A stretch of 64,000 bases of DNA from the NCBI GenBank assembly GCA_951406725.2, contig OX597832.1, forward strand, positions 9,362,001-9,426,000, read 5' to 3'. This DNA is from Octopus vulgaris. Its lineage: Eukaryota. This document shows, in pieces, positions 11,370 to 57,984 of the stretch (position 1 is its first letter; every line of letters begins with the position of its first letter). The position numbers and the translations under genes are program-made. The notes below the pieces were generated by a model. The model saw only the letters and a program-made list of their open reading frames with translations, ran no database searches and was not told where the DNA came from.

Positions 11370-12141
11370 CGTTTCAGTCATTTAACTGTGGCCATCGACC
11401 CCAGGACTTATTCTTTGTAAGCCTAGTACTTATTCTATCGGTCTCTTTTGCCGAACCGCTAATGTAACGGGGAAATAAACACACAGGCATCTGTTGCCAA
11501 GCGGGGTTGGTGAGACACACACACACACACACACACACACACACACACACACACACACATATATATATATATATAGGAAAAAAGCAACAAGAATGGATTA
11601 AAATCTCGGTACGATCGTTTCGTACGAGGACATCTTTAATAAGCTACAAAAATGCAGTGAATACAGATGGCTCGTACTCGTCAGCCGAAAAAACATCAGA
11701 GAATTCCCAAACATCAAAAGGGGTAGATACAAAGGAGGTTGTAAGATTAGCTGCATTGAAGAAAGTTCGATTCATGGAGATCCGATGAAAGGATTTAAAC
11801 CTATAGAATTTATGCATGTCTACATATAGCTCATATTGAATATTTGATCAAGTTGTGTGAAGAAATTTTCGGATACAGTCATGCAAAATTTCTGAAAATC
11901 CGAGTAACAGGTAAAGTGACTGCCATATCATGTAGAGGAAAGTCTGAGTAAAAGCAAAGTGACTATATATATATACGACGGACTTCTTTCAGTTTCCGTC
12001 TACGATATCCACTCATAACTCTTTGGTGTGCCCGAAGCTATAGTAGAATACACTTGCCCAAGGTGCCACCTAGTGGGACCGAACTCGGGACCATTTGGTT
12101 GGTAAGCAAGCTACTTACCACACAGCCACTCCTGCGTCTAT
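11370..12141 (-). mobile_element. tRNA-derived SINE family 1 copy, split in its central microsatellite by an HHR-bearing insert
   Basis: 3' half (11370-11515) and 5' half (11965-12141) match the intact copy at 24522-24955 in reverse orientation. Confidence 0.85.
11604..11690 (-). ncRNA. Type I hammerhead ribozyme, canonical core, long stem II
   Basis: Minus strand: UUUCGG-CUGACGA-GUACGAG..CUCGUAC-GAAA-CGAUCG-UA-CCGAGA; 7-bp stem II base, palindromic stem III, GUA cleavage triplet. Confidence 0.85.
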
Positions 12142-13159
12142 AATACATCTATCTATCTATCTATCTATCTATCTATCTATTTTCCTATAGAATAATAAAC
12201 ATATATATATATATATATATATATATATATATATATGCATTAACACACACATACAAATATACATACATACAATAAAAAAACATTTTTTTGCGCGAGTGCT
12301 TTTGTCTATATACAAGTGCGTGAGATTGTGGATATATTATAATTAGGTATACGTAGAAGCGTATTGGCAGCCACATTTAAATTATATTAATTGTTCAAAA
12401 CAGTATGTTGACCAAACATTATATTACGTTGTAGTCGATATCTTGTCTGCAACGTGGTTGAATAGTTGAAAGAATTATAAAACAAACAATAAAAACCTAG
12501 TACAAATATTTGATACAAATTAATTACATTTTAGAGATAAAATAGATAGCGAGTTATAATTAAAAATAATTTTCTTCAATGTCTTCAATAAGTCACGATT
12601 ACTTCGGTTTGTTTCGCTAATTACGGCGCCAATGATTGATTACGAAGGCACGGATAAGACAGATGTCGTCTTGACCTTTTGACCAGAACACGAGACACAA
12701 TTCAAATAAATTAGCTTCATATTAGTTAAAGATAAAATAAACATCGATGGCCATTTATTGGGCGCTTTGCCAGTTTCCTAGGGGACGTGGAAGAGTTTAT
12801 TGGTATCTTTTATATGTAATACAATGGAGCTTATATACATATACCTACATAATAAACCAGGGCACTGCGTGGTTTTCCGATCACCAATTCTCTTATCGAC
12901 TATAAGAAACTGTAACCAGATTAAGTATATTTCTTTAAATGTATCCTTGGAATAAGTAAAGAGATTTAAATCATATCACAAACGGCTTCTTAAAAGATAC
13001 TCTTATCCAAAATAATGAATTAAATATACAAACGCATATACGTATATATACATACACATACGCTTATATATATATATATATATAGACACACGCACACACA
13101 CCCATATATATATACATTCACAGAGATAGATGATTATGCAGATAAACAAACGTATATAT

Positions 13160-13259
13160 NNNNNNNNNNNNNNNNNNNNNNNNNNNNNNNNNNNNNNNNN
13201 NNNNNNNNNNNNNNNNNNNNNNNNNNNNNNNNNNNNNNNNNNNNNNNNNNNNNNNNNNN
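13160..13259. other. Assembly gap (100 N)
   Basis: Run of n. Confidence 1.
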
Positions 13260-15479
13260 TATAGTATTTATATAATAATAGTTCAAGCCTACGCAGGGTA
13301 CAAGAGATAGAGAAAATAAAAGGGATATATGCATGATTTTCTCTGTATCTGCTGACCTGGATTCTCCTTATAGCCAGTCTTTACCCCCGTGGACTTGGTC
13401 CCTCGTAAGAACATAGGAGTCTAATTTCGAAACACCTGAGTGCCACTAACTATTTTCTATATCGAGAATCTCACACTCTCACTTTCTCCCTCTCTCCCTA
13501 TATATATCTGTGTGCGTATGTATGTGTGTGTGCATACATATGTCTATATATATATGCAAATATGTATAGATATGTGTATATATATATCTCCCTCTCTCTC
13601 TCTCTCCCTCTATATCTCTCTTTCTCTCCCTCTGTATATATATATATATATATATATATATATATATATATGCAAATATATATACATATATATGAATATA
13701 CTACCACCTTCCTATTTTTCATGGTAAGCCGTACCATTTGACATTTGCAGATCAGGAGGATGTTTTGTATTTGTTCTACTAAAATGTGTGGTTGCTGTGT
13801 ATTTCTTGGTTGGGAGGCTATGGAAATCTTACATGGAATGGCGCAAAATACTCCCTATGCTAATGAGAATTTAGAAGATGATGCTACTCTTTATGTGCAC
13901 CTTGAATATTGATTCAGATAGACAATTCACATCCACCACATGAATTCAAAAGAAACAAGATCTCATATGGATCGCCATGCGTTGCAACAAAGACCAAGTA
14001 TAAAATGAAATTTAAAGCACCGCTATCAAACTTGATTGCAGAGAACAGCACTCAGTAGGCAGTACACTATAACAACTAAGGTGAATGAATTACCCAAGCC
14101 TACACCGCCTATCAGATGTGACATCAGAGAACAATTGTTATTGCTAGTTGTTAGAAGCACCAAAGTACACGAGGAACCAAAAACGAATAAATAAGTATTC
14201 GGATAGACGCAGAAAACGACATGATAGGATATATACATAAACGGACACACACACAAAAATATGTACAAATATACATACTCACATACACATACACGCACAC
14301 ACACCAACGCGCGCGCTTATAAATGAGTACAAAAATTAAAGAATAGGCACTAAAAACATTTAGTTTTATTCATTATTCTTTAAAACAGATACTTTCGGTT
14401 CCATGCCATTTAATGGCTCGCGGGCTTCTAACGGAAACCCGTTTATTTCAGATCTAGACTTCTAAGTCTGAAAAGATGAGATTCTGTTAAAGACTAGCCA
14501 ATTTATAAGTAGCATGGAGCCGAATCGATGTGTTTTAAATAACAACAACAACAAAAGTAAAATATAATAATAATAATAATAATAATAATAATAATAATAA
14601 TAATAATAATAATAGAGACACACGCAAACGTACACACTCACACGTACGCACACCTATACACACGACACACACACACACACATACAAGCACACACATACAT
14701 ATATTCAATAATATATGTGTGAAGTGAGATACAAACTGACAGACAGATTGGTTTATACAGACATATATTTGCATATATAGCATGCGGATAAAATTCAATG
14801 AAATCTAAATTACAACTATATACTGTACGGAATTCCTAGTTGGAACGAAAACGGACAGAAAATTGAATAATGCATAAAAATTATATAATTTAGTTGATTC
14901 GATGAAATTCAAATTTCACACTCAAATGCATAATACTGTTTTCTTTCAAGATGATTTCTTTTTTTTTATTGCAAAGGAGATGTGAGATCACTGACCCAAC
15001 ATTTCTCCGCTAAGTCATTTGAGATTTGCCATTTACCGGAAGAATTCTTTGTAGAGTAGAATGCGTTAAGAAATTGAATAGAGTAAGCTGTATTCCGGTT
15101 GAAATGAGCCCCCACATTGAAAGCGCAGCTTGAGTGAAACTGCATATAAATATTCTACAGCAATTACATATCTGCTATGCCGTGTTATATGGCATGCATG
15201 ACTAAATATAATAAGGTCAGACTTTGCATGCCGTACATGCGTGAGGTGACACTTGCTGAAATAACTCGCAGTGAGTCCCTTGTAAAAATATTGGCTGAAT
15301 AAAACAAAAAGGAGCAGCTTTGCAGAGAAGAGAGAAAAGGGCAACATCAAGGACATTATGATTTACCCCGATCAGCTAATCGCCCATTCAGGCTCTGTGT
15401 TTGTTTGTTTTTCCAAATCATGGCTCGCGGAACATGCAATAAACGTGAACAACCGCCTCCATAAATCTTCACTCGCGAA

Positions 15480-15690
15480 GCCAAGTCGTTATCGTCGACG
15501 TTGTCATCGTCATCAGGATCATCATTTTCGTCCGCTTCGTCATAGTTTGCGGCATCGACTTCATCATCATCATCATCATCATCATCATCATCATGATCGT
15601 CACCGTCGTCGTCGTCGTCGTCGTCATCATCATCATCATCAGCATCATCATCATCATCCTCATCATCATCATCATCACCATTATCCTCAC
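15480..15690. repeat. Degenerate (CAT)n/(CGT)n trinucleotide repeat
   Basis: Direct reading; explains the poly-D/H/M ORFs. Confidence 0.9.
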
Positions 15691-56821: not shown

Positions 56822-56960
56822 TATATATATATATATATATATATATATATATATATATATATATATATATATATATATATATATATATATATATATATAT
56901 ATATATATATATATATATATATATATATATATATATATATATATATATATATATATATAT
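56822..56960. repeat. (TA)n microsatellite
   Basis: Direct reading. Confidence 0.95.
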
Positions 56961-57260
56961 AATGATAAGAGTAAATAATTTCTATAAAGGCTTTTAAAAA
57001 AAAAACAATTATTTACTGGTAGAATTCGGTATGTAAATATAGCCGATTACCGGCAGGAACTTCTGTGAAGTTCAGTATATATATTGTATATAAGAAAAAG
57101 GGACAGGCAAAACAGGTTGCTTGACCGCATACCGAAAAAATAGAAATAGCAGTCAAGAATGCTTATTTCTATCAAAGTTGGACTCCGGGCATGACAGACC
57201 CTGTAATTCACATATGCAAAACAGAAGGAATAGATAACGAATACGAAGTCTGGCGGTTAT

Positions 57261-57371
57261 CTGTGAACATCATGTTTCTGGATTATAAACATATTGAATA
57301 TATATTCCATATATTTTTGATATATATTTCATATATATTGCAAATATATTTCACATCCTTCTTCAGCACAG
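57261..57371 (-). ncRNA. Type I hammerhead, long stem II (inverted copy)
   Basis: Reverse complement of 57874-57984. Confidence 0.7.
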
Positions 57372-57873
57372 CTTTCCATTGAAAAAGATTTATCATAGAT
57401 TTATCAAATGCTACGTACCTCAAACCTTCTGACCATGCGACATCAAAATATTTGAAGAAAGTGAGCAAAGGCTAAATCTACATAGACGTTTGAATTCATA
57501 AATCTTCCCTCCGCGGTCAAGCAACCTGTTTTGCCTGTCCCTTTTTCTTATATACAATATACAGAAGTTCCTGCCGGTAATCGGCTATATTTACATACCG
57601 AATTCTACCAGTAAATAATTGGGGTTTTTTTAAAAGCCTTTATAGAAATTATTTACTCTTATCATTATATTACTATTTGGATTTTTCACTCCCTTTGACA
57701 GCCTATTTTTGTAATGCGCATGGCAGAATTTTGGAGGGAAGATTTATGAATTCAAACGTCTATGTAGATTTAGCCTTTGCTCACTTTCTTCAAATATTTT
57801 GATGTCGCATGGTCAGAAGGTTTGAGGTACGTAGCATTTGATAAATCTATGATAAATCTTTTTCAATGGAAAG

Positions 57874-57984
57874 CTGTGCTGAAGAAGGATGTGAAATATA
57901 TTTGCAATATATATGAAATATATATCAAAAATATATGGAATATATATTCAATATGTTTATAATCCAGAAACATGATGTTCACAG
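57874..57984 (+). ncRNA. Type I hammerhead, long AU-rich stem II
   Basis: CUGUG-CUGAAGA-A-GGAU..AUCC-A-GAAA-CAUGAUG-UU-CACAG. Confidence 0.7.

Follow-up and report, generated by a model that had tools for sequence, protein, structure and literature searches.

Introduction

Minimal hammerhead ribozymes of type-I topology, with an extra base between positions 9 and 10.1 and a palindromic stem III, have been described from the Penelope-like elements (PLEs) of metazoans, in which many divergent families occur per genome, mostly as solitary truncated copies (Cervera and de la Pena 2014, PMC4209133), and in which their role has been called unknown (PMC7761336). The PLE clades that carry an endonuclease (EN), namely Nematis, Neptune and Penelope/Poseidon, encode a reverse transcriptase (RT) followed by a GIY-YIG domain, and their insertions are 5′-truncated, have an inverted copy upstream and a tail on one end, and use (TA)n targets, a trait tied to a Cys linker (Craig et al. 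2021, PMC8557442). Animal retrozymes without long terminal repeats (non-LTR retrozymes) are tandem units of 51–972 bp that have no open reading frame (ORF), hold one type-I hammerhead each and are proposed to depend on PLEs (Cervera and de la Pena 2020, PMC7229834; Li, Clavereau and Pollet 2026, 10.64898/2026.07.22.740005), the latter source deriving them from pseudo-LTRs; no cephalopod is named in the available parts of these two papers. In giant squid, 235 Rfam Hammerhead_1 loci are listed (PMC6962438), and the O. vulgaris repeat annotation lists PLEs and many unclassified short interspersed elements (SINEs), with ribozymes unmentioned in its available text (PMC13282606). The present study concerns a 64-kb stretch (the window) of the 2.8-Gb Octopus vulgaris genome (assembly GCA_951406725.2, contig OX597832.1, positions 9,362,001–9,426,000), which is 33% G+C, rich in microsatellites and dense in hammerhead-shaped motifs. 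Our analysis confirms that these motifs are real and very abundant ends of PLEs and of tandem parasites. In our judgement they are very probably the hammerhead-bearing 3′ ends (pseudo-LTRs) of four protein-coding PLE families (F1–F4) together with two ORF-less tandem units (F5 and F6) likely copied by the same enzymes, with cutting predicted only when two copies pair through the palindromic stem III.

The octopus motifs are mostly of a known kind, with self-cleavage predicted from their sequences: they share with the minimal hammerheads of other metazoan PLEs the topology, the extra base, the palindrome and the division into many, mostly solitary and truncated, families. Unlike those hammerheads (PMC4209133), they include stem II inserts of 51–81 nt, palindromes of 8–10 nt, an A.A or A.C opposition at the base of stem II and a family, with U in place of A at core position 6 (A6U), of more than 16,000 exact copies. 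The protein-coding parents have the RT-then-GIY-YIG order of the EN-bearing clades, and the insertions have the same 5′ truncation, inverted 5′ partner, one-end tail and (TA)n targets, although the tail measures ~75–120 nt in F1, F3, F5 and F6 versus the 30–40 bp described (PMC8557442); the clade names used here for octopus PLEs rest on linker motifs and not on a reference tree. F5 and F6 resemble animal retrozymes in their tandem, ORF-less units and fall within the reported size range, but carry PLE-type hammerheads with a long stem II where the animal retrozymes carry canonical ones. For F2, two systems are close. Schistosoma Sm-alpha/Sj-alpha likewise place an RNA polymerase III (Pol III)-type promoter before a hammerhead, but are tandem non-autonomous repeats (PMC6765202), whereas F2, mostly found as solitary or inverted copies, forms the terminal repeat of a protein-coding PLE. 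The TRIMp3 elements Cassandra, Helenus and Ajax also hold Pol III boxes derived from small RNAs in a terminal repeat, probably through SINE insertion; they are, however, non-autonomous LTR elements whose autonomous partners are expected to be without such repeats (Kojima 2024, PMC10886601), whereas in F2 the protein-coding PLE itself has the boxes. A literature search, with most subscription papers and Repbase outside its range, returned no report of octopus PLE hammerheads, of an A6U hammerhead or of a tRNA or Pol III box in a pseudo-LTR. Two features appear to be unreported, neither having been found in print: a protein-coding PLE with a tRNA-headed pseudo-LTR, and the A6U core in its massive amplification. 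Repbase or Dfam entries, paper supplements or the O. vulgaris repeat library may already include these families.

Hammerhead motifs in the window and the genome

A preliminary description of the window, made from its letters alone, had listed at least nine type-I folds with a palindromic or near-palindromic stem III (at 11604, 26964, 27502, 29575, 31054, 36857, 51104, 57261 and 57874), and all nine were confirmed on the strand and with the palindrome given there. A strict descriptor matched two window sites versus 0.05 per shuffle. One tolerant descriptor matched six sites, with none in 60 local dinucleotide shuffles and none in the reversed sequence, and another matched seven, with none in 200 shuffles; together they cover all nine sites, and an excess over shuffled or reversed sequence had been set beforehand as the test. 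Both tolerant descriptors were tuned after the window motifs had been viewed, so the independent tests are unselected genomic DNA and exact patterns. In 34 unselected stretches of 10 kb the two descriptors matched nine and eight sites, with none in 10 and 20 shuffles, and extrapolation from these 340 kb gives ~28,000–140,000 intact motifs genome-wide. The exact pattern for the F4-type, A6U-dominated motif found 16,447 genomic matches versus none in the reversed control, and a second and a third pattern found 3,184 versus 0 and 6,765 versus 8. The three patterns do not overlap and sum to 26,396 matches, so that the octopus total is at least this number, compared with the ~9,000 reported for Xenopus. 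Hammerhead density in the window, which was itself chosen for density, is ~3.5–4.5 times that of the random sample (binomial p 0.005–0.02). A surplus of (TA)n targets was rejected as the reason, with 11.1 tracts per 10 kb in the window versus 12.9 in random DNA.

The nine folds belong to eight insertions of six families, 57261 and 57874 being the two arms of one inverted insertion. Those at 26964 and 31054 carry private core mutations relative to their family majority (Table 1). The motif at 34370, previously called a decayed hammerhead, is one: it represents a seventh family and is 71% like an intact motif with a ACCAAUUGGU palindrome in locus L208. The Rfam hammerhead model, proposed earlier as a check, gave no match at gathering score over the window; no hammerhead was among 150 of the 331 matches listed at E<=10, and Rfam scans of small regions likewise returned none.

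The core CUGANGA / GAAA / UH with stems I–III is present in the family majorities of F1, F2, F3, F5 and F6, and F4 has U at position 6. Covariation among genomic copies, which the preliminary description had made a point of, is seen in stems I and III of 26 distinct long-stem-II copies drawn from the first 30 pattern loci, among which kinship inflates the pairing counts: the first four pairs of stem I are 95% paired versus 60% with shuffled partners (maximum 82%), and the inner pair of stem III is A-U in 20, G-C in 4, G-U in 1 and A-C in 1. In a further count among related copies, the fourth pair of stem I swaps between C-G (34), G-C (4) and G-U (2). In 35 non-anchor copies of the ACGU superfamily (F4-type), core columns are 0.89–1.0 conserved, compared with 0.40 at N7, 0.50 at H17 and 0.62–0.68 in loop II; this profile was built from pattern matches and is partly circular, H17 and stem I lying outside the pattern. 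By hand count of the first 100 of the 16,447 matches listed, U occupies position 6 in 96, and at N7 there are 23 A, 21 C, 13 G and 43 U; among 49 regex matches, U6 occurs in 40 and H17 is G in three. The A6U core thus dominates this most numerous motif. At the base of stem II the bases are A.A in F6 and A.C in F3. The minimum-energy fold of two copies has the double-hammerhead topology for F1, F3 and F5, and likewise for F6 with a shorter intermolecular stem.

Several related groups were encountered. Sister families of F4 with A6 (CUGACGA/CUGAAGA, ACGU) and a swapped stem I pair, at L039, L187, L195, L201 and L239, constitute natural controls for A6U. A further abundant long-stem-II group (CUGAUGA-GAAG...CUUC, GUC site, ACAUAUGU) was found at L094, L098, L182, L206 and L350–L379, together with a tandem repeat of 594 bp that is related to F5. 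A very young PLE family (L286:1937–6175 and L287) forms 4.4-kb tandem units, with 150 of 150 scored EN matches at 99–100%. Its two overlapping frames, of ~440 and 785 aa, may reflect a frameshift, and its hammerhead is a U3-A8 variant whose palindrome is ACCGGU; no such variant was found in the 64-kb window.

Protein-coding parents of F1–F4

F1, F2, F3 and F4 are 5′-truncated ends of protein-coding PLEs. For F1, an intact 1091-aa RT-linker-GIY-YIG frame lies upstream of the motif in L162. For F3, RT and EN lie upstream in two of the six long regions fetched (L173 and L178), 44–62% like the F1 parent, and one more region has the EN end; an adjacent Neptune-type ORF in L064/L168 was rejected as the F3 parent, the join being a one-off chimera. 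For F4, a contiguous frame with RT thumb, CxxC linker and GIY-YIG was found in two of 30 pattern-ordered loci, and the extended region L280 adds the RT core; RT core and EN are upstream in L280/L244, and EN in L245. The F2 unit follows directly and on the same strand after the ORF end in 12 of 20 loci from a search with a linker-less PLE RT; counting those 13 that extend to the ORF end, the proportion is 12 of 13. The Cys linker is present in the F1, F3 and F4 parents and absent from the F2 parent. These RT/GIY-YIG assignments rest on motifs and tblastn; Pfam scored RVT_1 below cut-off for the F2 parent, and the F1 frame and the piece of the F4 parent gave no match. Among named proteins, the best relative of one parent RT comes from Octopus sinensis (91%). 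The link to PLE RT/GIY-YIG machinery drawn in the preliminary description is supported, and so is the palindromic stem III of dimer type. Its division of the motifs into independent non-autonomous families applies to the F5 and F6 tandem units and probably to head-started F2 copies, and the label is wrong for four of the six families.

All 30 best BLAST matches of F4 start at nearly one point, whereas 5′ ends are scattered in the 30 pattern-ordered loci; because these unbiased copies are scattered, the shared start is largely a ranking effect, and the idea that F4 is a discrete 216-bp element whose 5′ end is fixed was rejected. Separately, many F4 copies (29692; L231, L244, L245, L228, L230) begin just after a pyrimidine-rich stretch ending CAG/TAG, which looks like a 3′ splice site and lies ~75 nt upstream of the hammerhead. 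In Drosophila virilis Penelope, an intron ends at the hammerhead (PMC4209133).

Tandem units F5 and F6

F5 and F6 consist of tandem units of 583 and 616 bp, each with one type-I hammerhead and no ORF. Arrays reach ~9 units, and most copies hold 0.5–3.5; they are dispersed on many chromosomes at 97–100% identity, in differing circular permutations, with inverted heads and with ends at a few unit positions that pass into (TA)n. PLE protein matches were found in seven of 53 F5/F6 loci, never inside the mapped units. From sequence features, a PLE of the F1/F3 type is likely their helper, because the long stem II, palindromes of 8–9 nt, TA targeting and tails of ~100 nt are common to both. A 40-nt block, 80% identical between F5 unit positions 129–166 and F6 unit positions 110–149 and 110–165 nt past the cut site, lies upstream of most insertion ends and is a candidate recognition signal. 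The F6 copy in the window is fused to an F4-type tail (58053–58155), a single case that may be a template switch; another cross-family chimera, an F3 end joined to the ORF of a different PLE family (L168/L255), is possibly of the same nature.

Insertion ends and a proposed mechanism

Head-to-head partners bearing the 3′ part occur in 11 of 27 F1, 10 of 22 F3 and 14 of 25 F2 loci, versus four among the 57 pieces of a control SINE that bear a tail. In nearly all pairs one end is long and the other short. Measured past the cut site, the two ends lie at ~37 versus >=159 nt in F1, at 29–42 versus 112–115 nt in F3 and mostly at 52–65 versus 84–85 nt in F2, the long distances reaching the end of the reference sequences used; F5 and F6 show like unequal pairs, for example 196 with 299–306 and 190 with 309–315. 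Overall, copies have variable 5′ truncation and fixed 3′ ends ~30–315 nt downstream of the predicted cut site. F1, F3, F4, F5 and F6 have (TA)n targets, whereas the ends of F2, whose parent is without the Cys linker, do not enter (TA)n.

We propose that EN nicks the target and that the site within the RNA at which RT primes is fixed. The template would be an uncut multimer or a re-ligated circle, and not a cut linear monomer, because insertion ends lie downstream of the cut site and every copy runs through it. In tandem transcripts, double hammerheads would form and set free RNAs of unit length, which would circularise, and rolling reverse transcription of such circles would yield the circularly permuted 583- and 616-bp arrays. 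Solitary copies, such as most of those in the window, are probably inert.

The tRNA-headed F2 unit

The F2 unit consists of a tRNA-like head, (AAT)n, a minimal hammerhead and a tail; because it follows the end of the parent ORF, what had been termed a tRNA-SINE is the pseudo-LTR of the parent, an element of Penelope/Poseidon type. The head is present in 20 of 30 F2 loci; across 52 heads, the majority sequence shows A and B boxes spaced as in a tRNA, with no acceptor stem. ARAGORN and Rfam reported no tRNA over the window. Among 47 F2 copies, a count that omits overlapping or duplicated loci (L293, L305, L315–L317 and L146–L148), 18 start within 15 nt of the head start, seven start further upstream and 22 start inside the unit. 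A run of four T (T4) is absent from 10 of 13 head-to-tail F2 copies, whereas F1, F3, F4, F5 and F6 have 3–9 each. A SINE would be expected to differ from its partner except in a shared 3′ tail; here the whole unit, head included, is the 3′ end of the parent at 12 of 13 loci. Nor did we find the marks of mobilisation by a long interspersed element (LINE): the inverted pairs are of PLE type, and a candidate target duplication flanks two of nine solitary copies. F2 may be among the octopus SINEs of Ohshima and Okada (1994). The terminal repeat of F2 carries a tRNA-like promoter that is likely to spawn SINE-like copies: boxes lying just past the parent stop codon would drive short Pol III RNAs that contain the whole recognition end and are copied in trans in the manner of SINE RNAs.

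Other features of the window

Table 1. Hammerhead-bearing insertions and PLE remnants of the window, numbered from its first nucleotide
Positions	Strand	Feature
3..718	-	PLE remnant, linker/EN region
8682..8858	+	PLE EN C-terminal remnant, one weak match (E 1e-5)
11573..11964	-	F1, 5′-truncated 3′ end of protein-coding PLE (RT, Cys linker, GIY-YIG), inside (TA)n of another SINE
11604..11690	-	F1 hammerhead: canonical CUGACGA core, 56-nt stem II, ACGAUCGU palindrome; predicted cut after 11610
26552..26662	-	Inverted partial F2 copy, head to head with 26658..27096
26658..27096	+	Head-started F2 copy, made up of a tRNA-like head with A and B boxes, (AAT)n, minimal hammerhead (26964-27009, with A14C) and tail
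27464..28269	-	F3, 5′-truncated 3′ end of protein-coding PLE (3′ untranslated region ~2.1 kb)
27502..27579	-	F3 hammerhead: CUGAAGA, A and C at stem II base (mismatch or bulge), ACAUAUGU palindrome; predicted cut after 27506
29475..29692	-	F4, 5′-truncated 3′ end of CxxC-linker PLE; flanked by 11-bp direct repeat
29575-29612	-	F4 hammerhead: A6U core (CUGUUGA), ACGU palindrome
30388..30486	-	Inverted fragment from the ORF end of the F2 parent, 73% identical as protein; part of the F2 copy at 31054
30485..31179	+	F2 copy extending 62 nt upstream of head into parent ORF-end region; head from ~30545, long (AAT)n
31054-31099	+	F2 hammerhead with A6G
33186..34017		Decayed PLE remnant: EN piece 33186-33383 on -, N-terminal RT piece 33416-34017 on +
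34370..34438	+	Decayed seventh-family hammerhead (intact relative with ACCAAUUGGU palindrome)
36667..37016	-	F5, 0.6 of a 583-bp tandem retrozyme-type unit, ends in (TA)n
36857-36948	-	F5 hammerhead, ACGUACGU palindrome; predicted cut after 36863
51045..51206	+	Older F4-type copy, 71% to 29475-29692; hammerhead 51104-51140, CUGUCGA
56957..57512	-	F6 inverted arm, 0.9 of a 616-bp tandem retrozyme-type unit; hammerhead 57261-57371
57513..58052	+	F6 direct arm, 0.9 unit; hammerhead 57874-57984: A.A at stem II base, 81-nt stem II, ACAUGAUGU
58053..58155	+	F4-type 3′ tail, 20-bp internal repeat, joined to F6 without spacer, then (TA)n
58215..58974	+	Old PLE RT remnant, YRDD, frameshifted; unrelated to adjoining F6 insertion

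The preliminary description also reported three PLE RT remnants. PLE coding remnants are indeed present, at five places, but the RT catalytic motif occurs only in that at 58215–58974, which Pfam did not recognise; apart from 30388–30486, these remnants are older, separate insertions. The remnant at 58.3 kb was rejected as a partner of F6: it is at most 83–89% like its other copies, and (TA)n separates it from the young unit, which is 99–100% identical to its own. A repeat search of the window was dominated by microsatellites, apart from a 320-bp inverted pair. An abundant tRNA-like SINE with an internal (TA)/(CA) tract is present at 11394–12152, 27130–28481, 36367–36641, 24514–24955, 31932–32310, 46596–47016 and 51416–51758; its tract hosts F1 and F3, and F5 abuts a copy. 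The intervals 5318–5919, 45925–46491 and 6606–7028 hold a 600-bp repeat pair (71%) and an open frame, which has no Pfam match and resembles the end of a mariner-type transposase.

Discussion

Going further than the pseudo-LTR reading set out at the beginning, we tentatively suggest that an autonomous Penelope/Poseidon-type element with a captured tRNA-derived Pol III promoter, placed upstream of the hammerhead in its terminal repeat, breeds its own SINE, thousands of short Pol III transcripts being retrotransposed by a telomerase-like PLE enzyme, and, in addition, that the A6U variant is a still working, selected ribozyme in tens of thousands of copies; to this combined proposal we give somewhat less than even weight. 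Several observations weigh against one or other part of what we propose. Neither Rfam nor ARAGORN scores the majority F2 head as a tRNA, and for F5 and F6 no autonomous partner with sequence in common turned up. For F4, only two of 30 unbiased loci have the contiguous parent frame, and inversions are few (two of 30 pieces). The two-copy fold of the ACGU families (F2 and F4) is not a double hammerhead, and their stem III duplex is predicted at only -1.7 kcal/mol. In reported experiments, PLE minimal hammerheads cut poorly in vitro, dimers included (PMC4209133), and of nine Xenopus retrozyme dimers only one was cleaved (10.64898/2026.07.22.740005). Hammerhead activity falls when A6 is changed, to <0.1/min for A6C (PMC3088659), and the largest octopus family is A6U.

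Two alternatives concern how the copies arose. The preliminary description regarded every family, whether long-stem-II, mini A6U or tRNA-SINE, as an independent non-autonomous element that borrows PLE enzymes, and this idea could draw on the great excess of short copies over long ones, the near-common start of the best F4 BLAST matches, the frequency of the tRNA-like head at F2 loci and the absence of an ORF from F5 and F6. Parent frames contiguous with F1, F2, F3 and F4, which refute it for F1 and F3, and the scattered 5′ ends of unbiased F4 copies make it very unlikely as a general account. It is also unlikely, if a little less so, that the F5 and F6 arrays are satellites, each expanded in place from one pseudo-LTR through unequal crossover and not by rolling reverse transcription. 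Local amplification has been proposed for retrozymes (10.64898/2026.07.22.740005), and arrays of up to ~9 units would suit it; dispersal over many chromosomes at such high identity argues for rolling reverse transcription instead, as do the mostly short copies in varied circular permutations, the fixed 3′ ends into (TA)n and the inverted heads.

The other two alternatives touch the F2 promoter and catalysis, and we regard both as possible, though on the doubtful side of even. F2 might not be transcribed by Pol III at all: a small tRNA-derived SINE may have landed in the parent 3′ untranslated region, with RT stalling or folding back at its structured head. The head with (AAT)n does resemble a complete tiny SINE insertion, a short hairpin lies at the head start, where many inversion joints fall, and 22 of the 47 copies are truncated inside the unit. 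A Pol III origin is favoured instead by boxes that, in 52 heads, match the type-2 promoter consensus at tRNA spacing, by the stopping of 18 of the 25 head-reaching copies within 31 nt, only seven passing the head, and by the scarcity of T4 terminators in F2, unlike F1, F3, F4, F5 and F6. Similarly, the folds, that of the A6U family above all, may be kept as a dimerisation or RT-recognition signal with little or no cutting in vivo. The prevalence of U6 in both samples of matches is consistent with such a role, as are the A.A or A.C base of stem II in F6 and F3, insertion ends that never fall at the cut site, the low activity reported (PMC4209133) and the success of Naiads without canonical hammerheads (PMC8557442). 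The pattern of change speaks against this reading: positions free of catalytic constraint, N7 and H17, vary, whereas C3, U4, G5, G8, A9 and G12–A15 stay fixed, and H17 is rarely G.

Returning to the reading of the motifs as PLE ends and tandem units copied by PLE enzymes, the octopus offers young, near-identical families, dimer stems predicted at 8–9 bp versus 4 bp and intact parent frames, which make the dimer and circle model testable family by family, with motifs that are invisible to Rfam. The PLE end signature on the 583- and 616-bp units, in which long and short inverted ends enter (TA)n, constitutes direct evidence, at the level of sequence, for mobilisation by PLEs, and it links retrozymes with PLE enzymes by a more direct route than their co-occurrence. 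Furthermore, if F2 is driven by Pol III, it would show how an autonomous PLE can give rise to a SINE, and some of the SINEs left unclassified in octopus annotations may then be PLE-derived.

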